This document shows positions 6,776 to 48,083 of a stretch of DNA of 64,000 bases, one piece after another. The stretch is from an uncultured Spartobacteria bacterium. Its GTDB lineage: Bacteria; Verrucomicrobiota; Verrucomicrobiia; Chthoniobacterales; JAATET01. A program made the translations under genes and the position numbers. The stretch's first letter is position 1. The number at the start of each line of letters is the position of its first letter. The stretch covers positions 47,679 to 111,678 of the forward strand of contig CALGTD010000138.1 of the NCBI GenBank assembly GCA_937901895.1, in the 5' to 3' direction. Below the pieces are notes generated by a model. That model made no database searches. It saw nothing but the letters and a program-made list of their open reading frames with translations, and was not told the DNA's origin.

Positions 6776-8026
6776 CTAGGGGCGCATGTAGGGGGTGTGG
6801 CAGAAGATCCAGTTCGCGAAGCCGTTGATCGCGATCGAGACGGCGATCAACGCCGGCGCCCAGCCGATCTTCTTTCGAGGTTCGCCTTCGAGGAGGAGGA
6901 CGAGCAACCACGGAAACAGGACGCTCGCATAGCGGTAGGACACCTGCCAGCCGCCGGGATTGCCGTGAATCCAGAGAAGGAATGTGAGCATGGCAACGGC
7001 GGTCCAGCACGCGACGCGCATCGTCGGGTTACCGCGGCGGATGCGGAATAGCACGAGCAGGAGGAAGGGCGAGTAAAGGAACAGCGAGCCACCCCAGCCG
7101 GTGGGAACCAGCCACGGAAATTCGGGGAGTTGTCTCCACGGCTCGATGAGCATCGCGTAGGCGTTCCGCGGGATGGCGGAAAGTGCGAAGATGCCGTCGC
7201 GATACCATGGCTCCTCGAGAACCCCCGGGATGCGTGCGTAGCCAAAATCGAAGGGTGTGCCGAAGCGTGCGGCATTGTAGGCGAGCGTGGCCACGCCGAG
7301 AAGGAAGGGCACGATCGAGAACAGAACGATACGGCGCAGCCAGTCCGGCGGGCGCTGGCCGAGGAGAAGGAAGTAGAGAATCGGCGCCGTGAGAAGAATC
7401 TCCGTGCGGTTGCCGAACCCGAGTGCGAAGAAGGCGCCGGCGAGAAACGGCCGTGGCGTTCCCGTCGAGAAATAGATCGCGCCAAGCGTGCCAAGGACGG
7501 CGAAACCGAGAGCCATCTGCCAGGCGCCGCCGTAGGACAGGTTCGGCCACAGGCACGTCGCGAAGAGCGGCGTGAACGCGAAGAGAATCTTCTTCCAGGC
7601 CGGCAGACCATGACGACCCGCGAGCGCGTATGCAAAGGCCGCGATGCCGGCAGCGATGAGCGACAGGAATCCCCGGAGAAGCAGAAACTGAGTCGCCTTT
7701 TGCTCCGGCACCCCGAACCAGAAGTTGTCGTGATTGCGTGTCGGGATGGCGAGTGGCATCGCGCTCAGGACGCTGCCGAGGGGGAAGACACTGAAATAGC
7801 GGCCGTCGTGGGGAACCATCTCGTTCAACCACGGCGGGGGTTGGACTCCCGTGCCTGTGGAACCGTCGAGCAGCCAGACGGCGACGCGGCGCGTGTAGTC
7901 ATACTCCGCATGCGGGGACGGTGTGGAGAACCACATGATCCCGAAGGCACATCCGGCGACGAGAACGACCTGCAGGGGGAAGGGAAGCCGTGCCATTCCG
8001 GGAAATCTCCACGCCGCCGCGTGCAC
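6776..8026 (-). CDS. polytopic membrane protein, probably a GT-C-type glycosyltransferase (DUF2029/ArnT-like)
   Basis: At least 10 predicted transmembrane helices, with conserved aromatic- and proline-rich loops. The start may instead be the internal MARLPF. Confidence 0.55.
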   Translation of the reverse strand: MHAAAWRFPGMARLPFPLQVVLVAGCAFGIMWFSTPSPHAEYDYTRRVAVWLLDGSTGTGVQPPPWLNEMVPHDGRYFSVFPLGSVLSAMPLAIPTRNHDNFWFGVPEQKATQFLLLRGFLSLIAAGIAAFAYALAGRHGLPAWKKILFAFTPLFATCLWPNLSYGGAWQMALGFAVLGTLGAIYFSTGTPRPFLAGAFFALGFGNRTEILLTAPILYFLLLGQRPPDWLRRIVLFSIVPFLLGVATLAYNAARFGTPFDFGYARIPGVLEEPWYRDGIFALSAIPRNAYAMLIEPWRQLPEFPWLVPTGWGGSLFLYSPFLLLVLFRIRRGNPTMRVACWTAVAMLTFLLWIHGNPGGWQVSYRYASVLFPWLLVLLLEGEPRKKIGWAPALIAVSIAINGFANWIFCHTPYMRP

Positions 8027-28324: not shown

Positions 28325-29653
28325 TTATTCGATCTCCAGTCGCCGCTTCACGTCGGCCGAAAGCCGGTCGATCGCGGGCATGGCGTGCTCGTAGAACGCG
28401 CGGTAGCCGGCGCACAGCCAGTTGAGGCCGGGCTCGCCATCGGCGGTCCGAAGCAGGCGGTTCTTTGGACACTCGCCCCAGCAGACACGGAGGTATTCGC
28501 ACCGGCGGCAGGCACGTGGAAGCGTCTCCGATTTCGCGTAGGCGAACTTCACCTGCTCCCGTGAGAACACGAGATCGACGAGATCATCGGAGAGGATGTT
28601 TCCGCGATAAAATTCCGGGTAAACAAAGTGATCGCAGGCGTAGACGCCGCCGTCGGCCTCGATCGCGAGGCATTTTCCGCAGAGTTCGGCGGACGTGCAG
28701 TTCTGCGCAGGCAGGCCCGCCCGCTGCGCGACGAGATCCTCGAAAATGCTGACGAAGATTCTGCCCGCGTCGTTGGTGATCCAGCGATCGAAGATTCGAA
28801 TGAGGAAGTATCCCCAGTCGTCCGGGTCCACGGTCCACGGCGTGACAATCGAGCGGGAATCGGGTGCTCCGGCGCGCGGGAGTTCCGTGGAATTCCATCT
28901 CCCCGGGGCGACGCGTTCGAAATCCCGGTGCTCGACGATCGGAATGAACTGCATCCGCAGGGAGCCGATGTCGTTTCGAAGGAAACGATACACGTCGAGC
29001 GGACGACGGGCGTTGTCGCGATGGACGCACGTCAGCGTGTTGAAAGGCACCCGATGCCGGTGCAGTCGCTTCGCGGTCTCGATGACTGCGCGCGATGTCG
29101 GCCCGCCACAGTTCGTCATGCGATGCGCATCGTGAATCTCCGGCGGACCATCCATGCTCAGCCCAACGAGAAAGCGATTCTCCGCAAGAAACTCACACCA
29201 CTCGTCGTCGAGCAGTGTGCCATTGGTCTGGATGTCGTTTTCGACGCGCTGGCCGGGACGTGCATGCCGGCGCTGAAACTCAAGAACCCGCCGGAAAAAC
29301 GGAATGCCGCGAAGCGACGGCTCGCCACCCTGCCACGAGAATACAACGGGACCGGTGTCGAAAGCCGCGAGCTGCTTTTGGATGAAGGCCTCCAGCGTTT
29401 CGTCCGACATTCGCGTCGGCCTCGGTCCGCCCGGCAAACGCGGCTTCGCGAGATAGAAACAATAGTCGCATCGGAGATTGCACGTGCTGCCGCCCGGCTT
29501 CGCCATGAGGTGGAAGCGATTTCCGCCCAGGCGCGCGGCGGCAAGTGGCGCATCGTATTTGTCGCGCATGTTCGCCCAGAATGGACAAAGCGCATGGGTG
29601 AAACCTTGCGGACGGGCAGGGAATTTTCCGCCCAGGCGCTGGAGGCGACGCAT
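28325..29653 (-). CDS. anaerobic sulfatase-maturating enzyme-like radical SAM/SPASM protein
   Basis: CNLRCDYCFY radical SAM motif near the N-terminus, GGEP, and C-terminal SPASM cysteines (CGKC...CDHF...CRRCEYLRVCWGEC). The start is possibly at the internal Met (29569). Confidence 0.8.
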   Translation of the reverse strand: MRRLQRLGGKFPARPQGFTHALCPFWANMRDKYDAPLAAARLGGNRFHLMAKPGGSTCNLRCDYCFYLAKPRLPGGPRPTRMSDETLEAFIQKQLAAFDTGPVVFSWQGGEPSLRGIPFFRRVLEFQRRHARPGQRVENDIQTNGTLLDDEWCEFLAENRFLVGLSMDGPPEIHDAHRMTNCGGPTSRAVIETAKRLHRHRVPFNTLTCVHRDNARRPLDVYRFLRNDIGSLRMQFIPIVEHRDFERVAPGRWNSTELPRAGAPDSRSIVTPWTVDPDDWGYFLIRIFDRWITNDAGRIFVSIFEDLVAQRAGLPAQNCTSAELCGKCLAIEADGGVYACDHFVYPEFYRGNILSDDLVDLVFSREQVKFAYAKSETLPRACRRCEYLRVCWGECPKNRLLRTADGEPGLNWLCAGYRAFYEHAMPAIDRLSADVKRRLEIE

Positions 29654-29701
29654 CCATCATCGTGGGCGCCGGCTGCGTCCGGCGCGCGAGTGGGCAGCGG
29701 A

Positions 29702-30256
29702 TCAAATCACGCGGCTGTTCATCCGTCGTGGCGACGACCCGCCTTTCGCCGTGCGGCATTCGCACTCTTCCAGATCGGCGACGTGGTGCTTCACGACGGC
29801 ACGACGCAGCTCGGAAAAGTGCCCGTTCTCGCAGCACAACACGAAGCTCTCCATGATGGTTTTGAGCTCCTCCCAGTGGCGACGCACGGAGCGGGCCTCC
29901 GCGTCGGTGATCTCGTTGTCCATGCTGGCGTGGGCAATCACGGCCAGCATATTGGCGAACTCCTGAATGATCTCATTCGTCGCGGGTAGAAGGTCGTTGC
30001 ATTGATCCCGGTGCTCGGGATCCCAGACGAAAAATCCCCCGGCGTGATGACACAGCCATTGAATGATCGGCAGATGGTCGGTGAGTTCGATCAGCAGGCG
30101 CGTCCGGTCGAGCGGGTTTCGAGCTCCGCTGCGATCATCTCCGTCGCTTTGCGCCCATTTGTAAACAATGGAAAGGGAGACGCCAAGGGCAGCGGCGATT
30201 TCCTTCGGGCTGCGCTTTTCGTATGCCGCGCGCAAGACCTCATGGGATTCCTGCAT
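29702..30256 (-). CDS. helix-turn-helix regulatory protein with a C-terminal Cys/His cluster (phage-CII-like)
   Basis: HTH segment SPKEIAAALGVSLSIVYKWAQ and the C-terminal cluster LCCENGHF...KHHVADLEECEC. Transcribed divergently from the yqiJ-like gene. Confidence 0.5.
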   Translation of the reverse strand: MQESHEVLRAAYEKRSPKEIAAALGVSLSIVYKWAQSDGDDRSGARNPLDRTRLLIELTDHLPIIQWLCHHAGGFFVWDPEHRDQCNDLLPATNEIIQEFANMLAVIAHASMDNEITDAEARSVRRHWEELKTIMESFVLCCENGHFSELRRAVVKHHVADLEECECRTAKGGSSPRRMNSRVI

Positions 30257-30379: not shown

Positions 30380-30994
30380 ATGCAAGCACTGATTGACCAG
30401 GCCCTGTTCGCCCCGACGCTGCCATTTACGGTGCTGCTTGCCGCACTGGCGCTTTACTGGATCGGTGCGGCGTTCGGCTTCGTTTTCAGCGAGGACGAAA
30501 TGTTCGACGCCTCGGACACCGACGGCGCATGGGCTTCGTTTCTTTCGTTCCTGAATGTCGGCGAGGTTCCGGTGATGATCGTCATCACGGTCCTCACGCT
30601 TTCCACGTGGGTGCTCAGCATCCTTGGGAACGAGTTTCTCGCGGGCGGCTCGCTGGCATTGGGGTTCGTGCTGCTCGTTCCGGCGTTCGCGGTTAGCTGC
30701 GTGATCACCCGGTTCACGACCGCGCCGTTCAAGAAGGTGCTGCGCCTGCTCAACAACGAGGGGGAGGCTCCCATGCAGCTCATCGGCAAGGTCGCCAAAG
30801 TGACCACCGCATCCGTTACCGACCGATACGGGCAGGCGGCTGTGGAGACCGGCGGAGCGCCCGTGATTGTGCAGGTGCGTGTCGCCGCCGGCGAATCACT
30901 GGCCCGTGGCGACAGCGCGCTCATCGTCGCAGAGAACGCCGCGACCGGAACTTTTACCGTCCGAAAAGTCAGCAACCAACAACTGGAGAACTAA
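30380..30994 (+). CDS. YqiJ/NfeD-like inner-membrane protein (DUF1449) with a C-terminal OB-fold
   Basis: Three or four N-terminal transmembrane helices, then a soluble beta-rich C-terminal domain (IGKVAKVTTASVTDRYGQAAVETGGAPVIVQVRV). Ends 3 nt before the flotillin gene. RBS GAGGAGG at about 30365. Confidence 0.7.
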   Translation: MQALIDQALFAPTLPFTVLLAALALYWIGAAFGFVFSEDEMFDASDTDGAWASFLSFLNVGEVPVMIVITVLTLSTWVLSILGNEFLAGGSLALGFVLLVPAFAVSCVITRFTTAPFKKVLRLLNNEGEAPMQLIGKVAKVTTASVTDRYGQAAVETGGAPVIVQVRVAAGESLARGDSALIVAENAATGTFTVRKVSNQQLEN

Positions 30995-30997
30995 ACC

Positions 30998-33004
30998 ATG
31001 GAACTCATCACACCACTTGCACTGCTGATCGGGATCATTGCGGTCCTGATCCTGCTGGGCTTCCTCGTCATGATCGTTCGCTGCTACCGCAAGGTGGACC
31101 AGGGACAGGCGCTCGTGCGCAACGGCCTCGGCGGCACGAAGGTGTCGTTTTCCGGCATCGTCGTGCTTCCTGTCATCCACAAGGCGGAATTCATGGACAT
31201 TTCCGTCAAGCGGGTGGAGATCGATCGCGCCGGCGTGAACGGTCTGATCTGCCGGGACAACATGCGCGCCGACATCAAAGTCGCATTCTTCGTGCGGGTG
31301 AATCAGACCGCGCAGGATGTGTTGAAGGTCGCGCAGTCGATCGGATGCACGAGGGCGTCGAGCCAGGGCGCCATCGTCGATCTGTTCGATGCGAAGTTTT
31401 CCGAGGCGCTGAAAACCGTCGGGCGGCAGTTCGATTTCGTCGAGCTCTACAACTCCCGCGAGAAACTCAAGGACGACATCATCCAGCTCATCGGCACGGA
31501 TTTGAACGGATTCGTGCTCGAGGATGTTGCGATCGATTACCTCGAGCAGACGCCGCTCAATCTTCTCAATCCCGACAACATTCTCGACGCGGAGGGCATC
31601 AAGAAGATCACCCAGCTCACCGCGTCGCAGAAGGTGCTCGCGAACCAGATCGACCGCGAGCGGGAGAAGACGATCAAGAAACAGGACGTCGAGGCCCGCG
31701 AGGCCATTCTCGAGCTCGAGCGGCAGCAGGCCGAGGCGGAGGAAAAGCAGAGGCGCGAGGTCGCAGCCGTGGCGGCGCGCGAGCAGGCCGAGGCGAAGAG
31801 AGTGCAGGCGGAGAATCTGCTCAAGAGCGAAGCCGCCCGCATCCGGGCCGAGGAGGAAATCGCGATCGCCGAGGAAAACAAGAACCGGCAGATCATCGTT
31901 GCCCGCAAGAACAAGGAACGCACCGATGCCATCGAGACCGAGCGCGTCGAGCGGGACCGGCTCATCGAGGTCACTGAGCGCGAGCGCATCGTCGAACTTG
32001 CGACGATCGAGAAGAACAAGGCGATCGAGGTCGAGCAGAAGGCGATTCAGGACGTGATTCGCGAGCGCCTTGTCGTCGAGAAATCGGCGGTTGAGGAGCG
32101 TGAGCGGATCAAGGACACCGAGGCGGTCGCCGCCGCGGACCGCGAGAAAAAGGTGAAGATCACCGAGGCGGAGATGCAGGCCGAACAGGCGCTGGTGAAG
32201 GATATCAAGGCCGCCGAGGCCGCGAAACGGGCCGCGGAACTGCTGGCTGAGCAGGAGTTGTTCAGCCGCGTGAAGCAGGCGGAAGCCGAAAAGGAAGCCG
32301 CAGAGCTGCGGGCGCAGGAGATCCTCATCGCCGCTGAGGCGGAGCAGGCAGCCGCCGTCAAACAGGCCGAGGCGAAGAAATCGCTCGCCGAAGCGACGAT
32401 CGCGGAGGTTGCAGCCACCGGACTTGGCGAAGCACAGATCATCCAGGCGAAGGCCGATGCCGAAGCGAAGGGCATTCAGGAGAAAGCGGAGGCCATGAAG
32501 GCGCTCGATGGCGTGGGTCGCGAGCACGAGGAGTTCAAGCTCCGCCTCAACAAGGAGAAGGAGATCGAGCTGGCGGGAATCACGGTCCAGCGTGAAATCG
32601 CCGAGCAGCAGGCACGCGTCCTGGGCGAGGCGCTCAAGAGCGCGAAGATCGACATCGTTGGCGGCGAGGCCCAGTTCTTCGACAAGATCACGGGTGCGAT
32701 CACCAATGCGAAGGTCGTGGACCGGCTTGTGCTGGGAAGCAACACGCTTTCCGACATCAAGGACACGTTCTTCACGGGCGATCCCGAGGACTTCCGCAAA
32801 CGGCTCGCCGAGTGGTTCCAGCTCTTCGGAGTGTCGAGCGAGGACGTGAAGAACCTCACGATCGCCGCGGCGCTCGGAAAGCTGATCAGCGAAGCGGACG
32901 ATGACCGCAGCCGTGGCGTGCTCGCGACGCTGCTCCATCGTGCAAAACTCGCGGGCGTATCCGAAAAGACGGTGGGCTCTTTGGGCGCACTGGCAGTGAA
33001 TTAA
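30998..33004 (+). CDS. flotillin / SPFH-domain (band 7) protein, YqiK-like
   Basis: N-terminal transmembrane helix, an SPFH domain, and a long E/A/K-rich coiled-coil 'flotillin' region (EAEEKQRREVAAVAAREQAEAKRVQAE...). Confidence 0.9.
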   Translation: MELITPLALLIGIIAVLILLGFLVMIVRCYRKVDQGQALVRNGLGGTKVSFSGIVVLPVIHKAEFMDISVKRVEIDRAGVNGLICRDNMRADIKVAFFVRVNQTAQDVLKVAQSIGCTRASSQGAIVDLFDAKFSEALKTVGRQFDFVELYNSREKLKDDIIQLIGTDLNGFVLEDVAIDYLEQTPLNLLNPDNILDAEGIKKITQLTASQKVLANQIDREREKTIKKQDVEAREAILELERQQAEAEEKQRREVAAVAAREQAEAKRVQAENLLKSEAARIRAEEEIAIAEENKNRQIIVARKNKERTDAIETERVERDRLIEVTERERIVELATIEKNKAIEVEQKAIQDVIRERLVVEKSAVEERERIKDTEAVAAADREKKVKITEAEMQAEQALVKDIKAAEAAKRAAELLAEQELFSRVKQAEAEKEAAELRAQEILIAAEAEQAAAVKQAEAKKSLAEATIAEVAATGLGEAQIIQAKADAEAKGIQEKAEAMKALDGVGREHEEFKLRLNKEKEIELAGITVQREIAEQQARVLGEALKSAKIDIVGGEAQFFDKITGAITNAKVVDRLVLGSNTLSDIKDTFFTGDPEDFRKRLAEWFQLFGVSSEDVKNLTIAAALGKLISEADDDRSRGVLATLLHRAKLAGVSEKTVGSLGALAVN

Positions 33005-33056
33005 TCCCGGCGCGGCGGGAGCGCTGCTTCCGCCGCGTTCTTCCAAGGATCGATCG

Positions 33057-36000
33057 ATGGAAAACAAACCACCGACAATCGAAGGCGGCACCTACGAGGT
33101 TTTGCGCGCCCGGCTCGACGAGCAGGCGCGTGACCTCCGGGAGCGGTTGGAGCGGCTGAACGACGCGCGGCAGGAGGTCTTCGGGACCATCGAAACCGCG
33201 CTTGTCGCGACGGGGCGGATCTCCACCGAGAACAACTGCGTCCCTCGCGACATGGTCGCGATTCGCAAACGCCGGTCGCTGCTTGGCTACAATGTCCACA
33301 TCGGCCTGCGCTCGGAGGTCCGGCTCGAGGATGTGTTTACCGCCTACCAGCGCGAGGGGGACGAGTTTCGGCCGATCCCGCTCGATTTCCTGAGGGATCC
33401 GGACTTCGAAGCCGACTTCCAGAGTCTTTTCAAATACTACAAGAACACCGTCTTCACGAAGTTCGCGTTCATTGGGCCGCACCTCTTTTTTGTTTTTCAG
33501 GTCGGCCAGCGCGTGACGGACGTGAAGACATTCAAGTGGCTCGTCGGGGAGGACGGCGCGTTCACATACCTCGGAAACCGCAGCGACCACGAGTTTGTCT
33601 TTCCGCCACAGCACGAGTTCGAGTGGAAGCGCACGCATCGCGACCTGCATCGCGATGGGCTTCATCCACATATATCGATCGAGGACCGCGTGTTTGTCGA
33701 AACGATCGGCGGCGACCTCACGATCAAGGTTGAAGATAACACCGACACCGGCGCGGGCATCTACAGCGAGCCAGTTGAGCATGCCGATCAGACGCTCGAC
33801 GATGCGGAGATTTTCTACGCCGTCGTCGGCAATCTCGTTCTGCTGCGCATCCGTCCCTACCAGGAGAAGACCTGGCGGTATTTTGTATTCAACGAAAAGC
33901 TCCAGCACGTCCGGCGAATCGATGCGATCGAGCAGTCCTGTGTGCTGTTGCCGGACGGACACGGCATTATCTTCTCGCGCGGCTACTATTTGCAAAGCGG
34001 AGAGCTGAAACTCTTCGACGCGAACTCGACCGACATGCTTTTCGAGCGGCGGATTGCCGCGCCGAACCGCGAGGATCACCTCTTCTGCTTCTACAATCGC
34101 GAGCGCGGCGACTACATCCTGATGCCCTACAACGTGATCACGCAGCGCGTGGACACGCCCATTCATTGCCAGGGTTTTTCCATCTTCGACAGCGGCGAAC
34201 TTGCGCTCTTCAAGGGGGACTCGGAACCGCAGAAACATCACACCGTCCAGATCTGGCAGACGCCGTTCACCGGCTCGACGTTCCAGACTCCGGCGAAGAC
34301 CGATTCGTTTCTCTTCAAAGTTGGCAACGGCGACATCGTCCGCTGCATGGCTGAGTGCCACGAGATTCTCGGGCTGATTGCGCGCGACGAACCCTATGCC
34401 GACCTCTATGTGGACCTTCGCAAGAGGGCCGGCGACGTGCTCGACTCGTATTTCTGGTTGCGGGAGGAGGACGCCTTTCGGTTGGTCGAACCGCTCGCGG
34501 CGATCCGCGATGCCGCGGATCGAACGATCGAGGAGTTCGACAAGGTGCTCGAGCTGCGTCGCACGGCGGCATCGAAACTGGAAGAAGTCGCAGGAAAGGC
34601 GCGCGCACTGACGGAGGGGATTGTTCCGGGGGAGTTGCAGGATATCGACGCCTACGTGCATGCGCTGGCCGGTCTGCGCACCGTTCGCGGTGAGCTGATT
34701 GCGCTCCGGGACGTCCGATACATCGATCTGGAACGGGTCGATACCGAGGAACAACTTGTCGCCGACTGCAGTGAGGAAGTGTCCAGGCTGTGCGTGGAGT
34801 TTCTTCTCGGTGATGCGGCGCTTTCCCCGTATCGCGAGCGCGTGAAGGCGCTGGAATGCCGGATCGATGAAATCTCCCGCGTCGTTGACGGGCGCGCGCT
34901 CGAAGAGGAGATGACCGTAGCCGGCGCGGACCTGAGCATGCTCATTGAGATCGTCGGCAATCTGCAGATCGACGATGCGACGGCGACGACGCGGATTATT
35001 GACGACATCTCCGCAATCTACGCGGCGCTGAACCAGAACCTCGCCCGCCTGCGCCAACGACTTGCCGGGCTGCGTCAGAGCGAGGGAGCGGCGCAGTTTG
35101 GAGCGCAGCTGAAGCTTGTCACCCAGGCCGTAACAAACCTGCTCGAGCGCTGCGACACACCGGAGAAGTGCGATGAAGCGCTCGGGCGCATGATGGTGCA
35201 GCTCGAGGAGCTGGAGACGCGTTTTGCGGAGGCGGCGGAGTTTCTCGAGCCACTGGCGGAGAAGCGCACGGAGGTCATCTCTGCGTTCGAGGCGAGAAAA
35301 CTCGCGCTTTTGGAGGCGCGCAACCGGAAGGCGACCGCGCTGGCCGGGGTGGCCGACCGCATGCTGAAGGGAATTCAAACCCGGGTGGCGTCCATCGATG
35401 ACGTCGCGGCCATCCACGGATTTTTCGCGTCCGATCTCATGGTCGACAAGCTGCGCGATGTCATTCAGCAGTTGCTCGATCTCGGCGATCCCGTGAAGGC
35501 CGATGATGCGCAGTCGCGATTGAAGACCCTGCGCGAGGAGGCCGTGCGTCAGCTCAAGGATCGAAAGGAGCTGTTCGTTGATGGTTCGGACGTCGTTGCG
35601 TTTGGTCCGCACCGGTTCAATGTGAACACGCAGCCGACCGATCTGACCGTGCTGCATCGGGACGACGGCCTGTTTCTGCATCTTTCCGGCACGCGCTTTT
35701 TCGAGCGGATCGAGGATCCCGAACTTGATGAGCTTCGTCCCGTTTGGGACCTCGAGGTTGTTTCCGAATCGCACGACGTGTATCGCGCGGAGTGGCTCGC
35801 CTGCAAGCTGCTCAGAAGCCTTGAAGATGGCGGTCGGCTGGCGGAAGCCGCCCGGTGGAGTTCCGCGCAATGGCTCGATGAGGTGCGGAATTTCATGTCC
35901 CCGCGATACGCCGAAGGTTATGTGCGGGGAATTCATGATGCGGACGCGGTCCGAATTCTGGAAGCGCTGGCGCCGATGCACCTGGCGGCCGGAACGGTGC

Positions 36001-38090
36001 GGCATCCTCCGTCCGCGCGGGTGCTCGGAATCATGGCCTGGGATCATTTCGACAATGCGGAGGAACGGGCGCTGCTGGAGGGACAACTGGCGAGCCATGG
36101 CGCGATGCGAGGTGTCTTCGAAACCGAGGCCCGCCCGGCGCCGTATCTCGCAAGGCTCGAGGGCGTCTGCCGGCGGGCAATCGAAAGCGGAGCGCCGTTC
36201 GACGAATCACTGGTTTCCCCCGCGGCGGAATATTTGTTCGACGCGTTGAGTTCGGGAGAGGGATTCGCGTTCAGCCAGGACGCTTTCGAGGTGTTCCGCG
36301 CGTTCGAAGATGATGTGCGGGAGCGGGGAGCCTTCGACCGGTTTGTGGAGCTTCGAAAGGCGGTGGAGACCAATCCGTGGCGCCACTTCGAGATGCTTCG
36401 CGATTGGATGAGCGGGTTTCTGCGCCGCAGCGACAGGGACGGGACGTTTTGTGACGAGGCAGTCTTCCTGCTGAAGCGCGGCGCGCATCACCAGCATCGC
36501 GTGGTCGATGTTGAGCTGCGTGTGGATCTCACCGGCATGCTCGGCCAGCATCCTCGCCTCCGGAACGGCGCCTATGTGCTGGATTACCTGGATTTCACGG
36601 ACCGTCTCGAGCGTCACGAGCGTGTCACGGCACCCGCCTTCGAGCGGTTTCAGGCGATCAAACGCCGTCTCTCCGAAGTGGGAGCCAGTCGCCTGCGGGT
36701 CGAGGAGCTTCGTCCGAAGGTGCTGACATCGTTTGTCCGGAACCGCCTTGTGGATGAGGTCTTTTTGCCGCTCGTCGGCGCAAACCTCGCGAAGCAGATG
36801 GGCACCGCGGGCGCGAATACGCGCACGGATCGCATGGGTCTGCTGCTGTTGATTTCACCTCCCGGCTACGGCAAGACGACGCTTATGGAATATGTCGCGA
36901 GCCGGCTCGGGCTCGTGTTCATGAAGATCAATGGTCCGTCGCTCGGCGCCGGCGTCACCTCGCTGGATCCCTCGCATGCTCCGAATGCTGCGGCGCGCGA
37001 GGAGATCGAGAAACTGAATCTCGCATTCGAGATGGGCGACAATGTGATGATCTATGTGGACGACATCCAGCATTGTCATCCCGAGTTCCTGCAGAAGTTC
37101 ATTTCGCTCTGCGACGGCCAGCGGCGGATCGAGGGTGTCTATCGCGGACAGGCGCGCACCTACGACCTGCGCGGGCGGAAGGTCGCCGTGGTCATGGCGG
37201 GAAATCCCTACACGGAAAGCGGCGAGAAGTTCCGGATTCCCGACATGCTCGCGAACCGGGCCGATACCTACAATCTCGGCGACATCGCTGTGGGCGCGCA
37301 CTTCGAAGCGTTCCGCCTGAGCTACCTTGAGAATGCGCTCACGTCGAACGCGGTGCTGAACCCTCTCGCCGCGCGCGGGCGCAAGGACATCCTTGGCGTC
37401 ATTCGAATTGCGGAGACCGGTGGCCGCGATGGCGTCGAGCTTGAAGGCAATTACACCGCTCGGGAACTCGAAGACATGGTTTCCGTCGTGAAGAAGCTCG
37501 GCCGCATCCGCGACGTGATCCTGAAGGTGAATGCGGAATACATCCGCTCCGCCGCGCAGGCCGATGCCTACCGCACCGAGCCGCCGTTCCGCCTGCAGGG
37601 ATCGTATCGCAACATGAACCGCATGGCCGAGAAGGTCGTGCCGGTGATGAACGACGAAGAACTCGAAGCGCTCGTGATGGACCACTACCGCAACGAGGCC
37701 CAGACGCTCACGACGGGTGCCGAGGCGAACCTGCTCAAGCTGCGGGAACTTCTCGAAAAACTCACTCCGGAGGAGGCGGCGCGATGGGAGGAAATTCGGA
37801 AGACCTTTCGTCGCAACCTGCTGGTGGCGGGGACGGAAGGGGATGACCCGATTGCGCAGGTTGTCCGGCAGCTCGTGGCGTTTAATGTCGGGCTGGAAGG
37901 GATCAAGGACGTTATCGGGAGCATGGCCGCGAAGCCGGAACGCCCGCCCGCGGGATCCGATCCGGGGATCGATCTCACGAAGGTCGCGATCTCGCGCGAG
38001 ACCTTGCAGAAGATCTGGGAGCTCATCGAGCAGGACAAGATTCGGGCGAACAAGGGCGACACGTTGCAGGTGAAGATTCCGGAGGAGTAG
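33057..38090 (+). CDS. 1677-aa multidomain protein with a single C-terminal MoxR/AAA_5-type ATPase module; N-terminal ~1250 aa of unknown function
   Basis: Uninterrupted 5-kb ORF. Walker A LLLISPPGYGKTT (~36858-36884), Walker B VMIYVDDIQH (~37050-37080) and VVMAGNP (sensor-1-like). A beta-rich N-terminal ~450 aa and a coiled-coil-rich middle region have no recognisable family. Confidence 0.8.
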   Translation: MENKPPTIEGGTYEVLRARLDEQARDLRERLERLNDARQEVFGTIETALVATGRISTENNCVPRDMVAIRKRRSLLGYNVHIGLRSEVRLEDVFTAYQREGDEFRPIPLDFLRDPDFEADFQSLFKYYKNTVFTKFAFIGPHLFFVFQVGQRVTDVKTFKWLVGEDGAFTYLGNRSDHEFVFPPQHEFEWKRTHRDLHRDGLHPHISIEDRVFVETIGGDLTIKVEDNTDTGAGIYSEPVEHADQTLDDAEIFYAVVGNLVLLRIRPYQEKTWRYFVFNEKLQHVRRIDAIEQSCVLLPDGHGIIFSRGYYLQSGELKLFDANSTDMLFERRIAAPNREDHLFCFYNRERGDYILMPYNVITQRVDTPIHCQGFSIFDSGELALFKGDSEPQKHHTVQIWQTPFTGSTFQTPAKTDSFLFKVGNGDIVRCMAECHEILGLIARDEPYADLYVDLRKRAGDVLDSYFWLREEDAFRLVEPLAAIRDAADRTIEEFDKVLELRRTAASKLEEVAGKARALTEGIVPGELQDIDAYVHALAGLRTVRGELIALRDVRYIDLERVDTEEQLVADCSEEVSRLCVEFLLGDAALSPYRERVKALECRIDEISRVVDGRALEEEMTVAGADLSMLIEIVGNLQIDDATATTRIIDDISAIYAALNQNLARLRQRLAGLRQSEGAAQFGAQLKLVTQAVTNLLERCDTPEKCDEALGRMMVQLEELETRFAEAAEFLEPLAEKRTEVISAFEARKLALLEARNRKATALAGVADRMLKGIQTRVASIDDVAAIHGFFASDLMVDKLRDVIQQLLDLGDPVKADDAQSRLKTLREEAVRQLKDRKELFVDGSDVVAFGPHRFNVNTQPTDLTVLHRDDGLFLHLSGTRFFERIEDPELDELRPVWDLEVVSESHDVYRAEWLACKLLRSLEDGGRLAEAARWSSAQWLDEVRNFMSPRYAEGYVRGIHDADAVRILEALAPMHLAAGTVRHPPSARVLGIMAWDHFDNAEERALLEGQLASHGAMRGVFETEARPAPYLARLEGVCRRAIESGAPFDESLVSPAAEYLFDALSSGEGFAFSQDAFEVFRAFEDDVRERGAFDRFVELRKAVETNPWRHFEMLRDWMSGFLRRSDRDGTFCDEAVFLLKRGAHHQHRVVDVELRVDLTGMLGQHPRLRNGAYVLDYLDFTDRLERHERVTAPAFERFQAIKRRLSEVGASRLRVEELRPKVLTSFVRNRLVDEVFLPLVGANLAKQMGTAGANTRTDRMGLLLLISPPGYGKTTLMEYVASRLGLVFMKINGPSLGAGVTSLDPSHAPNAAAREEIEKLNLAFEMGDNVMIYVDDIQHCHPEFLQKFISLCDGQRRIEGVYRGQARTYDLRGRKVAVVMAGNPYTESGEKFRIPDMLANRADTYNLGDIAVGAHFEAFRLSYLENALTSNAVLNPLAARGRKDILGVIRIAETGGRDGVELEGNYTARELEDMVSVVKKLGRIRDVILKVNAEYIRSAAQADAYRTEPPFRLQGSYRNMNRMAEKVVPVMNDEELEALVMDHYRNEAQTLTTGAEANLLKLRELLEKLTPEEAARWEEIRKTFRRNLLVAGTEGDDPIAQVVRQLVAFNVGLEGIKDVIGSMAAKPERPPAGSDPGIDLTKVAISRETLQKIWELIEQDKIRANKGDTLQVKIPEE

Positions 38091-38633: not shown

Positions 38634-38836
38634 TCCCGCAGGGCGCCCCGGCGGGGCGCGACTCCCGGACGTCGGAGCTACAGGCCTGGAGCTAAGGTCG
38701 TGTCCGGCCATTTCTGCGCGGCATTCGGCGGGCACATTCCGGAGCCATGATCGTTGCGTCATCGCACCGGTGAAGGACGCGCAATGAATGGCGGAGGGCG
38801 TTGTCAAAGGGTGCGGACTTGATTAAACGCAACCGC

Positions 38837-40330
38837 ATGCGCCGCCCTTTTTTCCTGCTGCACCTTTCCGCTCTGCTCCTCGCCGGGGCGGCACCGTCTT
38901 CTGCGCAAACCTTTGTGCCTGCTCCGATGCCGGCTTTGTTGAGGAAGGCGGGCCTTCCTCCCACGGTGCGCTTCGGTTACGTCACTGTCCCCGCGAACCG
39001 GGCGATGAATAATGGACAGAAGATCCAGATCGCGGTGGCGATCCTTCCCGCGAGGGAATCGCCGAAGAAGCCGGACCCGATCTTCTTTCTGCAGGGCGGA
39101 CCGGGAGGGGCCGCCACCTTGGTGGCTGGGGATCCCGTGTATTCTCTGCTCTCCAGGGATCGCGATGTCGTCTTCATTGACCAGCGGGGGTGCGGGTTCT
39201 CGCGACCGTTTCTGGGTGCGGCTTCCAATGATGTGACCGTTCCATTCCGTCCGATCGCTCGTGCCCGGGCCCGCTTCCGCGAGCGTGGAATTCCTCTTGC
39301 GAGCTTCAATACGCCGGAGAATGCAGCGGACGTCGAGGCGGTCCGGAAGGCGCTCGGCTATGGTCAAATCAACCTGTTGGGCAGCTCCTACGGGACGGTG
39401 CTCGCACAGCAGGTGATGAGTGATTTTCCACACAGACTCCGGTCGGTCGTGCTGAGCGGGGTGGTGCCGCTGCGTGGCTGGGACCTTGTGCCCGGCAATC
39501 AGCTTGTGCAGATGGATGGCCTGCGCGGCCTGTTTCGCGACGTGCGACGCACGCGGCGCGATCGGCGTTCGTTTCCGGCCCTCTCCTCGCGGTATAATGA
39601 GGTGATTGCGCGGCTTCTGGAGCGGCCGGTCATCCTCCGTCATCGCAGACAGAAGATCCGGCTCGATGCGTTTTCGTTTCAAAGTGCGCTGATCGTGCTC
39701 CTGCAGACACCGCAAACGGTCCGCTATGTTCCGTTGCTCATCGAGGCCGCGTGGGAAGGACGCTACGAGCAGGTGGGGCCGTATCTTTATCCGCCGATGC
39801 GGCCGGGCGACCGCGGTCTCGCATTCGGGATGTTTCTTTCCGTCGTGTCTCACGATTTCCGGGCGCCGGGAACCCATCGCCATGCGCTGGCACAAGTCGA
39901 TCGACTGCCCAATGGTCCCTTCAAGACGATGACCCGTTACACCGTCGACCGCCTCACCAAGGCGCTCGACCGCTGGCCGGTGGCCTACGATCCGGGCGCG
40001 ATCCGGCCGCCGTTTGGCAGTGCGGTGCCAACTTTGCTCGTGCAGGGAGACATGGATGCGCAGACACCGCCGAAGGGCGGAACGGACGCCGCGCGGCTGC
40101 TTGGTTTGAAGAATGCGTTTGTGATGTCGTTCCCCCGCAGTGGCCACGCGACCGGTCTTTCCGAAGGGCCGGCGTGCGACGCCATTCGTCAGTTTTTTGA
40201 CACGCCGAATCGGCGACCGGTCGTCAATCTGGCCCCGCTTCGGAAACGGCACTTCTACCTCACGAAATTCCCGCAGCGCTCCCGCACGAAGGCGATGCGC
40301 CCGGTGGTTCCCGTGGCCTCGTTGCCTTGA
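38837..40330 (+). CDS. secreted alpha/beta hydrolase (S33/TAP-like peptidase family), copy 1
   Basis: Signal peptide, GGPGG, and nucleophile elbow GSSYGT. About 65% identical to the downstream paralog. Confidence 0.75.
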   Translation: MRRPFFLLHLSALLLAGAAPSSAQTFVPAPMPALLRKAGLPPTVRFGYVTVPANRAMNNGQKIQIAVAILPARESPKKPDPIFFLQGGPGGAATLVAGDPVYSLLSRDRDVVFIDQRGCGFSRPFLGAASNDVTVPFRPIARARARFRERGIPLASFNTPENAADVEAVRKALGYGQINLLGSSYGTVLAQQVMSDFPHRLRSVVLSGVVPLRGWDLVPGNQLVQMDGLRGLFRDVRRTRRDRRSFPALSSRYNEVIARLLERPVILRHRRQKIRLDAFSFQSALIVLLQTPQTVRYVPLLIEAAWEGRYEQVGPYLYPPMRPGDRGLAFGMFLSVVSHDFRAPGTHRHALAQVDRLPNGPFKTMTRYTVDRLTKALDRWPVAYDPGAIRPPFGSAVPTLLVQGDMDAQTPPKGGTDAARLLGLKNAFVMSFPRSGHATGLSEGPACDAIRQFFDTPNRRPVVNLAPLRKRHFYLTKFPQRSRTKAMRPVVPVASLP

Positions 40331-40448
40331 GATTGCACGGAAAGGACGTCCACCCAACTCCCGGTCGATCTTCACCCCAGCGAGGGCGACGACTGGCGGA
40401 GAGTGGTGGCGGCGTTGTCAAAGTGGGCGGACTGGATTAAAGGCACGC

Positions 40449-41948
40449 ATGCTCCGACACCTTCTTTCGCTGCGTGTCTTCGCGGCATTTCTCGTCGGGG
40501 CGGGGCCGGCTCTTGCGCAGACCTTCGTGCCTGCTCCGCTTCCGGCGTTGTTGAGAAGGGTGGGTCTTCCAGATACGGTGCTCTTCGGCTACGTGGCGGT
40601 TCCCGAGAACAGGGGATCGGACAATGGACGGATGATTCAGGTTGCGGTCACCATTCTGCCTGCGACTCAATCGTCGAAGCGACCGGATCCCATTTTCTTT
40701 CTCGAAGGCGGTCCGGGAGGGACGGCGAGCTACCTGCCGCTCTCGCCGACGTTTTCGATCCTGGCGCAGGATCGGGATATCGTGTTCGTGGATCAGCGCG
40801 GATGCGGATTTTCACGGCCGTTTCTTGGCGCGAATTCCAACGACGTCACCGTGCCCTATTCCCCGATCAAGAAGGCGCTCGCGCGGTTTCGCTCCGCCGG
40901 CATTCCGCTGGAGTGCTTCAACACGGCGGAGAATGCCGCCGATATCGAGGCCGTCCGTGTGGCGCTGGGTTACGGCGCGATCAATCTCCTCGGGCACTCG
41001 TATGGCTCGGTGCTCGCGCAGCAGATGATGAGCGACTTTCCGGCGAACCTGCGTTCGGTGGTGCTGAGCGGGGTGGTGCCGTTGCGCGGATGGGATTTCG
41101 TGCCGGGGAACCAGCTCGTGCAGCGCGATGCGTTGAGGGCACTGTTTCGCGATGTGCGTCGCACTCGAAGGGCGCGCGCGACGTTTCCGAATCTCGCGCG
41201 ACATTACGAAGAGGTGGTGGCGAGGCTGCTCGAAAAGCCGGTGATGGTGCCGAGATTCGGACGCCTCGTGCGACTGGATGCCTTTTCCTTCCAGATGGCC
41301 CTGCTTGGGCTCATGCAGGCGCCGAACACCATTTGCGTGGTGCCGCTTTTCATTCAGGCCACGTGGGAGGGCCGCTACGAGGAGATCGGTCGCTTTATTC
41401 CGGACGACCTCTCTCCGGTGAAAAACCGGAGTTTTGCCTTCGGCATGTATCTTTCGGTGATGTCGCGCGATTTTTTCCCGCCCGGGTCTGCGGCAAAAGC
41501 GCGCGCCGCCGCTGATGCGCTGCCGGACAGTGCGTTCAAGGAGATGACACGCGTCACCGTTTCCCGACTCGCCCGGGCGATCAATCGCTGGCCGGTGCGC
41601 TACGATCCGACCGGACTGAAGCCGCCGTTCGGAAGCGCCATCCCGACGCTTCTGCTCCAGGGGGACATGGATGCGCAGACGCCGTCTCGTGGCGGCACGG
41701 ATGCCGCGCGTCTGCTGGGCCTGCGGAACGCTTTTGTCATCAGTGTGCCGCGTAGCGGTCACAGCACCGGTGCCACCCAGGGACCCGCCTTCAACGCGGT
41801 GCGTCGGTTTTTTGCCGAACCGCACCGCAGGCCCGTGGTGAGCTTTGCCTCGTTGCGGCGGCCGAATTTTTATCGCACCCGATTTCCAGTCTCATCCCGG
41901 ATGCGGACGCCCGCGGTGGCGATTCCGCAGCTCCCGACGGGGTTGTAG
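40449..41948 (+). CDS. secreted alpha/beta hydrolase (S33/TAP-like peptidase family), copy 2
   Basis: Signal peptide, GGPGG, and nucleophile elbow GHSYGS. Collinear with copy 1 over its whole length. Confidence 0.8.
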   Translation: MLRHLLSLRVFAAFLVGAGPALAQTFVPAPLPALLRRVGLPDTVLFGYVAVPENRGSDNGRMIQVAVTILPATQSSKRPDPIFFLEGGPGGTASYLPLSPTFSILAQDRDIVFVDQRGCGFSRPFLGANSNDVTVPYSPIKKALARFRSAGIPLECFNTAENAADIEAVRVALGYGAINLLGHSYGSVLAQQMMSDFPANLRSVVLSGVVPLRGWDFVPGNQLVQRDALRALFRDVRRTRRARATFPNLARHYEEVVARLLEKPVMVPRFGRLVRLDAFSFQMALLGLMQAPNTICVVPLFIQATWEGRYEEIGRFIPDDLSPVKNRSFAFGMYLSVMSRDFFPPGSAAKARAAADALPDSAFKEMTRVTVSRLARAINRWPVRYDPTGLKPPFGSAIPTLLLQGDMDAQTPSRGGTDAARLLGLRNAFVISVPRSGHSTGATQGPAFNAVRRFFAEPHRRPVVSFASLRRPNFYRTRFPVSSRMRTPAVAIPQLPTGL

Positions 41949-42045: not shown

Positions 42046-42324
42046 ATGGCCACCACGGCGAAAGTGCTGCTTTGGGTTTTGGGGATGTTTCTTATTCCGC
42101 CGTTCGTCGGATTTCTCACGGGAGCGGCAAGTAATTGGGCAAACGCCGGTGCATTCGTCGCCTATGGCTTCGTGATGATTGGAATGGCGGTGGGGGCGGC
42201 TGTGAACGTGGCGCGAAGTCCGGCAGCGCGGATTGGCCTGTTTTTTGTTTTTGCGGTCGGAATGCTCTTCCTGCAGTGCGCCGTCTTTTTTGTCGGTTGC
42301 ACGATTCTCGTGTCGGTCGCGTGA
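42046..42324 (+). CDS. small integral membrane protein
   Basis: 92 aa with three predicted transmembrane helices. Its stop overlaps the GTG start of the radical SAM gene (GTGA). Confidence 0.4.
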   Translation: MATTAKVLLWVLGMFLIPPFVGFLTGAASNWANAGAFVAYGFVMIGMAVGAAVNVARSPAARIGLFFVFAVGMLFLQCAVFFVGCTILVSVA

Positions 42325-43697
42325 GCGGAATCGTAATCCCGAATCCTCTGGGCTCGCTGCTCAAGCGCACGCGCAGCCGGTGTGTGGTATGTCATCAGGA
42401 TTGCCCCGCCGAGGTGCGGCGAAAGGCGGAGGATGGCGTCGAGAAGGTCTTTCTCACGCGCTCTTGCCCGATGCATGGCTCGCAGACGACCTGCATCGCG
42501 TCGGACGCGAGGTTCTACTGGCTCGCGCAAGGCAATCCGGACAATGCGTGCTGTGGCCCGGGGGCAGCCTGCTGCGCCTCGACGGGCGAGCCGGCCGGGT
42601 CGCTGGGCAAAAACGCATTGGGGCGGGCTGACGGTCCTTTCGAGAAGCTCTCCACCTGCCTCGCGCTGATCGAGATTGTCGATACCTGCAATCTTGCATG
42701 TCCTGTGTGCTATGCGGATTCGCCGCGCGATCATGCGACCATTGGTGCGAAACCCGTCGACGAACTGCAGGCACGGATCCAGGGCGTGATCGATCGCAAG
42801 GGCGAGATCGACATCCTGCAATTCTCCGGCGGCGAGCCGACGATCCATCCGCAATTCTTCGAGCTGCTCGAGTGGGCACAGTCGCATGCGGGCATTCGGT
42901 ATGTGCTTGTGAATACAAACGGCGTGAAGCTTGCCACGGATGACGAGTTTCTTGCCGGCATGGCGGCGGCGGCTCGGCGACGGGGATTGCAGGTATATCT
43001 TCAATTCGATGGCACTCTCGAGGCGGGGCAGCGGGAGTTGCGGGGAGGGGATCTGCGGGCGATGCGGGAGCGGGCGATTGTGCGTTGTGGCGAGATCGGT
43101 CTGCCGGTCACGCTGGCCATGACCGTGACGCAGGAAAATCTCTCGAACGTGTGGGACACGGCGGAGTTCGGCCTGCGTTTTCCGCAGGTGCGCGGTGTGA
43201 GCTATCAGCCGTTTTTCACGAGTGGGCGACGTGTCGCGCTGGATCCTGGCTACAGACCGCTCACGACGGCCGATGTGCTGCTGGCGCTCATTGCGAACGG
43301 TCCACTAAAGGCGGACGATTTCACGCCGTTGCCATGTGGTGATCCGAACTGCGCGACCATCGGCTACCTGCTGCGCGTGGCGGAGGAGGTGCGGCCCATC
43401 AGCGAGTTTCTCGATTTCCGTGAGCTGCAGGGTTTCCTTCGCGACAAGGTGCGTTACTCGCTGGACGACCTTGTCCAGTGCGGTTGCGAGAACGAGCCGC
43501 TCGGCGAGTTGCTCAAGCAATTCGAACTCGATGAGTCGAATACGTTCCGGCTTTTCGTGAAGCCGTTCATGGATGCGTTCACCTGGGACGAGGATCGCAT
43601 CGACCGCTGTTGCACGCATGTGATCCGCGAGGATGGCCGACTCGACTCGTTTTGCCGCTACTACTCCGGATTCCCGGATACGTGTTGCGCTCCGTGA
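42321..43697 (+). CDS. radical SAM enzyme with an N-terminal Cys/His knuckle and a Cys-rich C-terminal extension
   Basis: CNLACPVCY (CX3CX2C) and FSGGEPT motifs. N-terminal CVVCHQDC...SCPMHG. C-terminal PCGDPNC, VQCGCENE and RCCTH...[15 protein letters not shown]. Confidence 0.8.
   Translation: MSGIVIPNPLGSLLKRTRSRCVVCHQDCPAEVRRKAEDGVEKVFLTRSCPMHGSQTTCIASDARFYWLAQGNPDNACCGPGAACCASTGEPAGSLGKNALGRADGPFEKLSTCLALIEIVDTCNLACPVCYADSPRDHATIGAKPVDELQARIQGVIDRKGEIDILQFSGGEPTIHPQFFELLEWAQSHAGIRYVLVNTNGVKLATDDEFLAGMAAAARRRGLQVYLQFDGTLEAGQRELRGGDLRAMRERAIVRCGEIGLPVTLAMTVTQENLSNVWDTAEFGLRFPQVRGVSYQPFFTSGRRVALDPGYRPLTTADVLLALIANGPLKADDFTPLPCGDPNCATIGYLLRVAEEVRPISEFLDFRELQGFLRDKVRYSLDDLVQCGCENEPLGELLKQFELDESNTFRLFVKPFMDAFTWDEDRIDRCCTHVIREDGRLDSFCRYYSGFPDTCCAP

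Positions 43698-44381: not shown

Positions 44382-44398
<17 letters not shown>
43694..44398 (+). CDS. prolipoprotein diacylglyceryl transferase (Lgt)-like membrane protein
   Basis: Seven predicted transmembrane helices and the Lgt-like signature region [20 protein letters not shown] start overlaps the radical SAM stop (GTGA). Confidence 0.6.

Positions 44399-48083
<3,685 letters not shown>

Follow-up and report, generated by a model that had tools for sequence, protein, structure and literature searches.

Giant DUF3686 ATPase encoded beside a YqiK-type flotillin and a YqiJ/NfeD-like protein in an uncultured Spartobacteria bacterium

What does a bacterium do with an ATPase of 1677 residues that is encoded directly behind a flotillin gene and carries a single nucleotide-binding site near its C terminus? 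The question is raised by a 64,000-nucleotide stretch of DNA from an uncultured Spartobacteria bacterium of the Verrucomicrobiota (GenBank assembly GCA_937901895.1, contig CALGTD010000138.1, positions 47,679 to 111,678 of the forward strand), which is referred to here as the window and numbered from its first letter. The giant gene, at positions 33057 to 38090, stands third in a conserved module, behind the genes for a YqiJ/NfeD-like membrane protein and a YqiK-type flotillin. The mechanism of bacterial flotillins is debated, and we know of no energy-consuming partner of flotillins. The giant ATPase family provides a concrete handle on the role of flotillins in bacteria, as its members are very large, very strongly conserved, and co-inherited with a flotillin and an NfeD-like partner. 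An earlier note on this DNA, made from the sequence alone, had described the protein as an ATPase that is presumably cytoplasmic and recruited to the membrane by the neighboring SPFH/NfeD pair.

A conserved module of YqiJ/NfeD-like protein, flotillin, and giant ATPase

The genes of the module in the window are as follows.

30380 to 30994, plus strand: YqiJ/NfeD-like membrane protein of 204 aa, with about three hydrophobic segments and a C-terminal soluble domain (Pfam, BLASTP, hydropathy)
30998 to 33004, plus strand: YqiK-type flotillin of 668 aa (BLASTP to Escherichia coli YqiK)
33057 to 38090, plus strand: giant ATPase of the DUF3686 family, 1677 aa (translation, Pfam, homologue alignment)

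The giant reading frame is far beyond chance because the Pfam DUF3686 profile (PF12458) matches it at an E value of 6e-186 and more than 3900 proteins match it at E values of 1e-10 or lower. Its start is supported by an AAGGA sequence about 10 nt upstream of the ATG and by the alignment of the N terminus with homologues from the first residues. An open reading frame (ORF) of 1070 aa antisense to the giant gene (positions 32886 to 36098, minus strand) was rejected as a high-GC artifact.

The gene order was examined in 62 related loci that had at least 2.6 kb of upstream sequence and came from at least seven phyla. In 59 of them, the gene immediately preceding the giant gene, on the same strand, encodes a flotillin, with a median gap of 282 nt, and a YqiJ-like gene was detected before the flotillin in 45 of the 58 loci with enough sequence; a divergent YqiJ-like cluster occupies this place in five more. 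The triad recurs in Proteus mirabilis and on pQBR103, a megaplasmid of Pseudomonas fluorescens; on a Streptomyces plasmid, a small unmatched ORF is followed by the flotillin and giant genes. Among the related loci there was no conserved neighbor besides the flotillin and YqiJ-like genes and nothing conserved downstream of the giant gene. The link to the SPFH/NfeD pair proposed in the earlier note thus extends across phyla, and its SPFH protein is a true YqiK homologue, matching E. coli YqiK at a BLASTP E value of 4e-50 with 31% identity over 506 aa.

The flotillin consists of an N-terminal transmembrane helix, which is its single hydrophobic segment, the SPFH domain, a long helical region rich in E, A, and K, and a conserved C-terminal region; its conservation profile contained no one stand-out docking segment. 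Pfam Band_7 and Flot gave no match, even at an E value of 1 or lower, to the window flotillin or to the homologues from two further loci (L081 and L082). The subfamily is 50 to 60% identical across phyla yet invisible to Pfam Band_7 and will thus be overlooked wherever SPFH proteins are surveyed by domain. The 204-aa protein is judged to be YqiJ/NfeD-like on weak evidence, namely, a Pfam YqiJ_N match below the cutoff (E = 5.6e-4) and a BLASTP match to E. coli YqiJ (E = 3e-4).

The spacer within the operon and its divergent neighbor contain two further features.

33009 to 33039, plus strand: 14-bp GC-rich hairpin within the 52 nt that separate the flotillin and giant genes, followed by UUCUUCC (RNA fold of -28.5 kcal/mol, z = -2.2)
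29702 to 30256, minus strand: HTH_23 protein of 183 aa, divergent from the operon, a candidate regulator (Pfam HTH_23, E = 1.3e-5)

The hairpin was not called by a terminator scan; partial termination there could reduce expression of the ATPase relative to the flotillin. In several other loci the same spacer holds small ORFs (L023, L025, L043, L046, and L078; L022 at positions 7362 to 7919), of which a cluster of about 87 to 139 aa presumably resembles the GxxExxY family and one of about 185 aa presumably resembles DUF559 endonuclease-like proteins. These look like unrelated, selfish-looking insertions in the operon spacer and not like partners. Homologues of the HTH_23 protein, 38 to 42% identical, adjoin the operon in five loci labeled Verrucomicrobiales, Opitutales, or Kiritimatiellota (L013, L018, L026, L029, and L055).

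The operon is longer in some lineages. In 14 Bacteroidota loci and on a Hymenobacter plasmid, genes matching CesT_Tir_1 and PspA_IM30 precede the triad and are accompanied by a divergent LexA-like regulator; this LexA-like HTH/S24 gene stands at the place equivalent to that of the HTH_23 gene in the window. On pQBR103 of P. fluorescens SBW25 (locus L084, NC_009444.1, positions 84437 to 97641), the triad closes a 10-gene operon with the order YjfI, PspA, rhomboid, DUF2491, DUF350, DUF1190, glutathionylspermidine synthase, YqiJ-like protein, SPFH protein, and giant ATPase. This operon unites two classes of PspA operon that were kept apart by Ravi et al. Of the first 80 loci, 65 gave no PspA match, and L016 has PspA downstream only, on the opposite strand.

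By its profile matches, the giant protein is a member of the DUF3686 family, a known but uncharacterized kind of protein. PF12458 spans aa 26 to 466 over its whole length (profile positions 1 to 448 of 448; score of 618.6 bits, cutoff of 25), PF25472 (DUF7902) matches aa 588 to 669 (E = 1.3e-23), and AAA and AAA_5 match aa 1263 to 1387 at scores just over their cutoffs. A scan of NCBIfam yielded sub-threshold RuvB matches only, and Pfam searches with isolated segments found no lid family and no middle-domain family. The NCBI name for the family is "DNA repair ATPase," and Pfam calls it "ATPase involved in DNA repair." The best 120 of the more than 3900 homologues are full length (1639 to 1950 aa) and 51 to 81% identical, and those that are named are mostly "DNA repair ATPase." In a scan of one genome per species, at least 592 species encoded a relative. 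Relatives occur in the Verrucomicrobiota, Planctomycetota, Bacteroidota, Desulfobacterota, Kiritimatiellota, Omnitrophota, and Clostridia, with 44 to 55% identity across phyla. Matches to the N-terminal domain were found in plasmid-collection records from Streptomyces, Nonomuraea, Deinococcus, Proteus mirabilis, Vibrio, Halomonas, and the P. fluorescens megaplasmid pQBR103, and matches to this domain are annotated as "DNA repair ATPase" in Actinomycetota, Deinococcus, and Gammaproteobacteria. An exhaustive search with the N-terminal domain gave 253 to 740 clusters at 50% identity; the family has one fixed architecture, because every complete match is a protein of 1600 to 1930 aa with the domain at its N terminus. 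Some homologues carry extra repeats in front of the propeller according to precomputed Pfam annotation (ankyrin in P0079 and P0101, HEAT in P0097).

The earlier note had held that no named family could be assigned; the protein falls into DUF3686 and DUF7902, and the architecture had already been noted by Ravi et al. (2024, mSystems, PMC11237479) as "Betapropeller+Coiled-coil+AAA-ATPase" in an operon of CesT/Tir, PspA, YqiJ/YuaF, and flotillin genes. Abbreviated operons without PspA, consisting of flotillin, YqiJ, and the ATPase, are widespread according to the same authors (PMC11237479), who made the same envelope-stress inference from context and drew an analogy to ESCRT/Vps4 (PMC11237479); no AAA+ clade, structure, or experiment is given there (PMC11237479). 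Our literature search returned no experiments, structure, or further paper on the family, no paper mentioning DUF3686 or PF12458 or the combination of YqiK, YqiJ, and an ATPase, and only irrelevant papers on flotillin together with MoxR. The ATPase is not mentioned by Hinderhofer 2009 or in a Pseudomonas aeruginosa SPFH paper, and other comparative papers on the phage shock protein (PSP) system or on ESCRT add nothing on it. The architecture and its flotillin link are therefore already catalogued but uncharacterized, since the description by Ravi et al. exists while no experimental work was found. Database searches did not place the whole protein in a well-characterized family with a function unrelated to flotillins.

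Predicted anatomy and the AAA+ module

The domain boundaries of the giant protein were taken from two AlphaFold2 models built on 63-sequence alignments, one of aa 1 to 930 (predicted local distance difference test [pLDDT] of 83.7, predicted template modeling score [pTM] of 0.57) and one of aa 801 to 1677 (pLDDT of 88.2, pTM of 0.77).

33084 to 33182, plus strand: N-terminal long helix, aa 10 to 42 (AlphaFold2)
33192 to 34271, plus strand: beta-rich, divergent propeller-like domain, aa 46 to 405, with about 27 strands; core of Pfam DUF3686, aa 26 to 466 (AlphaFold2, Foldseek)
34308 to 35573, plus strand: helical arm, aa 418 to 839, with about 13 helices of 20 to 58 residues in spectrin-like bundles (AlphaFold2)
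34818 to 35063, plus strand: Pfam DUF7902 inside the helical arm, aa 588 to 669 (Pfam)
35592 to 35708, plus strand: small beta domain, aa 846 to 884 (predicted by both AlphaFold2 models)
35772 to 36701, plus strand: middle domain, aa 906 to 1215, mostly alpha-helical and containing also a small beta element and a long helix (AlphaFold2)
36837 to 37286, plus strand: AAA+ alpha/beta core, aa 1261 to 1410 (AlphaFold2)
37287 to 37931, plus strand: lid and C-terminal helical domain, aa 1411 to 1625 (AlphaFold2)
37932 to 38090, plus strand: low-confidence, poorly conserved tail, aa 1626 to 1677 (AlphaFold2, conservation)

The models bear out part of the layout that had been read from the sequence. 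The first 450 residues or so had been described as beta-rich and possibly a propeller, followed by helices at about residues 500 to 900; the beta-rich domain is indeed predicted, with a fold that is propeller-like by Foldseek, but the helices begin at residue 418 and end at residue 839. The "alpha/beta region" placed before the ATPase is replaced in the models by the small beta domain (aa 846 to 884), a mainly alpha-helical part (aa 906 to 1141), and a small beta element with a long helix (aa 1148 to 1213). The roughly 250 residues said to follow the ATPase agree with the approximately 267 residues behind the AAA+ core, which ends at about aa 1410. In the numbering of the C-part model, the tail has pLDDT values below 50 in segments 826 to 842 and 864 to 877. 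Mean column identity peaks at 0.89 in the AAA core and is 0.82 in the segment just before the core, 0.74 in the lid, and 0.73 in the beta domain; the middle domain (0.49 to 0.52) is the least conserved part of the protein apart from the tail (0.31). The propeller-like domain holds very many charged residues that are invariant in the homologue alignment. The protein is predicted to be soluble and cytoplasmic, and the claim that it has no transmembrane helix is sustained by a highest 19-residue Kyte-Doolittle mean of only 1.36; both proteins encoded upstream have transmembrane segments.

The ATPase motifs map to the following positions.

36855 to 36881, plus strand: Walker A, SPPGYGKTT, aa 1267 to 1275, the sole P-loop; invariant, including K1273 (regular-expression scan)
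37044 to 37073, plus strand: Walker B, VMIYVDDIQH, aa 1330 to 1339, with invariant D1335 and D1336 (scan and alignments)
37125 to 37166, plus strand: pre-sensor-1 beta-hairpin, aa 1357 to 1370, between alpha3 and beta4 (DSSP of the AlphaFold2 model)
37197 to 37208, plus strand: sensor-1 motif AGNP, aa 1381 to 1384, with invariant N1383 (scan and alignment)
37257 to 37259, plus strand: R1401 in PDMLANRAD, invariant, a candidate arginine finger from its position after beta4/alpha4
37599 to 37610, plus strand: GSYR within the invariant RTEPPFxLQGSYRNMNR (aa 1506 to 1522), with R1518 as candidate sensor 2 (alignments)

The regular-expression scan gave exactly one P-loop in the 1677 residues, in the place near the C terminus where it had been reported, and the reported Walker B and AGNP motifs are both present. 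The Walker A motif had been given as GPPGYGKTT at about aa 1265; its first letter is a serine, which is invariant in 25 and in 63 homologues. The Walker B motif has DD instead of the usual DE, and the DD is likewise invariant. The arginine finger and sensor 2 that the earlier note wanted sought have candidates in R1401, by its position, and in R1518, which we take to be sensor 2 from the resemblance of GSYR to the "GxSxR" lid motif of MoxR proteins; a long helix (aa 1468 to 1500 in the AlphaFold2 model) precedes this motif.

By its modeled fold, the ATPase module is a MoxR-class AAA+ domain. The predicted AAA+ fold is nearest to solved MoxR structures, with CbbQ and NorQ as the best matches, and the strands at aa 1357 to 1362 and 1365 to 1370 (557 to 562 and 565 to 570 in C-part numbering) form the pre-sensor-1 hairpin of the MoxR clade, in agreement with the MoxR/AAA_5 type suggested previously. 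Comparison of sequences does not settle the clade: AAA_5 scores 25.8 to 29.9 bits (cutoff of 22) while the generic PF00004 scores equally, and matches in a Protein Data Bank search with the single sequence and the AAA-module profile were confined to the P-loop-to-beta2 stretch of p97, Rix7, and RuvB. Membership in the classical clade-3 AAA proteins (p97, Vps4, and FtsH) was rejected, as the nearest fold is another and the loop following beta2 (GAGVTSLD) contains no aromatic pore residue of pore loop 1. A dynein or midasin heavy chain was likewise rejected, as it has six concatenated AAA modules and the giant protein has one P-loop and one AAA+ fold.

What the ATPase may do at the membrane

We estimate a probability of about 0.6 that the giant ATPase acts at the membrane in physical association with the flotillin/NfeD complex. 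This partnership is favored by the conserved gene order and by the homology of the flotillin to YqiK; the giant protein has no transmembrane segment while both of its partners are membrane anchored. Walker A, Walker B, sensor 1, R1401, and GSYR are all invariant in the homologue alignments. In the mechanism that we propose, the AAA+ modules would assemble into a ring, as MoxR hexamers do, and the invariant R1401 would be suited to catalysis at the interface between subunits. The propeller and helical arms would extend to the cytoplasmic part of the flotillin/NfeD assembly on the inner membrane, and ATP binding and probably slow hydrolysis would remodel this assembly or proteins held there. The docking on the flotillin coiled coil and the recruitment to the membrane that the earlier note had suggested are conjectural. 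Such remodeling might consist of opening, assembling, or recycling the flotillin scaffold, or the PspA polymers where the operon has PspA, and might form part of an envelope-stress or membrane-maintenance response, a link to which the PspA and CesT genes of the Bacteroidota operons and the PspA gene of pQBR103 point. Given that the pore loop has no aromatic residue and that the DD of Walker B is invariant, a MoxR-like clamp or switch remodeler is more likely than a threading unfoldase. That the flotillin cage itself is the substrate is a tentative idea, with the odds against it. The same guarded expectation applies to the fullest form of the proposal, in which YqiJ, flotillin, and the giant ATPase would make up a self-contained, ATP-driven flotillin machine whose MoxR-like ring, with six propeller-tipped arms, grips the flotillin cage to open, assemble, or recycle it.

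Several observations weigh against this partnership or its mechanism. The proposed mechanism is drawn from gene order and fold. An hhalign comparison of the AAA module with E. coli RavA was weak (probability of 16%), and the interval between beta2 and alpha2 is modeled by AlphaFold2 as an 18-residue loop with a short helix and not as the hairpin of the helix-2 insert that is typical of MoxR proteins. MoxR ATPases are normally paired with a VWA/MIDAS partner, and no VWA family was found among the window neighbors or the annotated relatives. ATPase activity might be very low, given the DD in Walker B. In three loci (L017, L031, and L061), 7.7 to 8 kb of upstream sequence was available and no flotillin or YqiJ homologue was detectable in the locus; the partner genes may have been lost or may lie elsewhere in these genomes. 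The 64-kb window contained no homologue of PspA or CesT.

The PspA genes suggest a different reading, in which the ATPase is a Vps4-like disassembly enzyme for PspA (bacterial ESCRT-III) polymers and flotillin/NfeD serves only as a membrane platform. The sharing of an operon with PspA and a CesT-like chaperone in the 14 Bacteroidota loci and on the Hymenobacter plasmid, the presence of PspA on pQBR103, the ESCRT/Vps4 analogy of Ravi et al. (PMC11237479), and the finding that PspA of Bacillus subtilis is tied to the membrane by an SPFH protein (Scholz et al. 2021, PMC8581546) all speak for it. However, the operon is without PspA in most phyla as well as in the window, whereas the flotillin and YqiJ genes are nearly always there, and the ATPase is MoxR-like, not of the classical Vps4 type, and has no MIT-like domain; we consider this reading unlikely. 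The structural matches to CbbQ and NorQ, which are client-specific activases, together with the many invariant charged residues of the propeller, which suggest one conserved ligand, would suit a maturation chaperone of the MoxR type that serves a specific membrane enzyme or complex in flotillin microdomains and does not act on the scaffold. We give it only a small chance, as the neighborhood contains no conserved client gene and no VWA adaptor, and flotillin and YqiJ are the only universally co-inherited proteins.

A role in antiphage defense or another conflict, with an NTPase whose sensor propeller triggers a membrane effector, could be read from the patchy distribution, which looks prone to horizontal gene transfer and includes megaplasmids, from the small selfish-looking genes inserted in the operon in some genomes, and from the link of the module to the "phage shock" protein PspA. 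It is very improbable in view of the rest of the evidence: a search of PADLOC-DB 2.0 gave no significant match, only IetA at an E value of 0.0036 over 29 residues at the P-loop, and nothing for the partner proteins; the N-terminal domain has no copy in 50,697 phage records; the flanking genes are housekeeping genes that vary between genomes; the protein contains no nuclease, protease, or toxin domain; and 44 to 55% identity across phyla with 89% column conservation in the AAA core is unlike fast-evolving defense genes. Least credible of all is a role in DNA repair as an ATPase akin to SMC, Rad50, or SbcC, for which only the Pfam and NCBI labels speak. The lone P-loop, with a Walker B motif 60 residues on, lies in a contiguous AAA+ fold and not in a split ABC head around a coiled coil, Pfam and NCBIfam gave no match to an SMC, Rad50, SbcC, nuclease, or DNA-binding family, and the conserved neighbors are membrane proteins; the "DNA repair" name is therefore without support, and the literature search described above offers it none.

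If the triad really is the self-contained flotillin machine outlined above, the giant ATPase would be without precedent, in any organism, as a dedicated partner that spends energy on a flotillin scaffold. It would correspond, in bacteria, to Vps4/ESCRT-III or FtsH/HflKC, and its propeller-like domain would be a fold variant without a close solved relative. Establishing the function of the protein would test active remodeling of SPFH scaffolds and would correct the widespread "DNA repair ATPase" annotation. The family is carried by tractable hosts, including Proteus mirabilis, P. fluorescens with pQBR103, Streptomyces, and Hymenobacter. To those who know the comparative genomics of the PSP system, the finding will be of little surprise.

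Neighboring genes and comparison with known systems

Downstream of the giant gene, two consecutive TAP-like alpha/beta-hydrolase ORFs (Abhydrolase_1 and Abhydrolase_4; positions 38801 to 40330 and 40140 to 41948, plus strand) are listed with an overlap of about 190 nt, and the second probably starts further downstream than listed. These hydrolases and a downstream ORF of 162 aa were considered as operon partners and rejected, as they are not conserved beside the operon elsewhere. They are followed by a radical SAM protein whose N-terminal zinc ribbon is of the HMPTM type (positions 42135 to 43697, plus strand) and a full-length cobalamin-dependent methionine synthase, MetH (positions 44382 to 48083, minus strand), which as housekeeping neighbors argue against a defense island. 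Upstream, an arginine-rich ORF of 453 aa (positions 28628 to 29989, plus strand) is an antisense high-GC artifact; the real gene encodes a radical SAM/SPASM protein (positions 28325 to 29653, minus strand).

Nothing essential differs between the window and the operon described by Ravi et al. The domain order and partners are the same, the YqiJ/YuaF-like protein and the transmembrane, band-7/flotillin protein by which that operon is recognized are both encoded in the window, and the example genome Dokdonia is a flavobacterium, like several of the loci found here. The window carries the abbreviated form, without PspA and CesT, with the HTH_23 gene in place of the LexA-like regulator of the Bacteroidota.

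With the MoxR ATPases (CbbQ, NorQ, and RavA; AAA_5/AAA_3), the giant protein shares the predicted fold of the ATPase module. MoxR proteins have about 270 to 500 aa, a DE Walker B, and a VWA/MIDAS partner, whereas the giant protein has 1677 aa, of which about 1260 residues are N-terminal domains, a DD Walker B, and no VWA partner. Midasin and dynein contain six AAA modules per chain; the giant protein contains one and would thus have to oligomerize to form a ring. In the FtsH-HflK/C and m-AAA protease-prohibitin systems, an AAA+ machine is functionally coupled to an SPFH scaffold at the inner membrane. FtsH, however, is a membrane-anchored classical AAA protease that is not in an operon with a flotillin-type SPFH protein, while the giant ATPase is predicted to be soluble and MoxR-like and lacks a protease domain. 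Vps4, one of the classical clade-3 AAA proteins, combines a MIT domain with an aromatic pore loop, and the giant ATPase has neither; the likeness to Vps4/ESCRT-III would lie in the pairing of a membrane-shaping polymer with a dedicated AAA+ recycler, for which PspA is present in the operon of some phyla.

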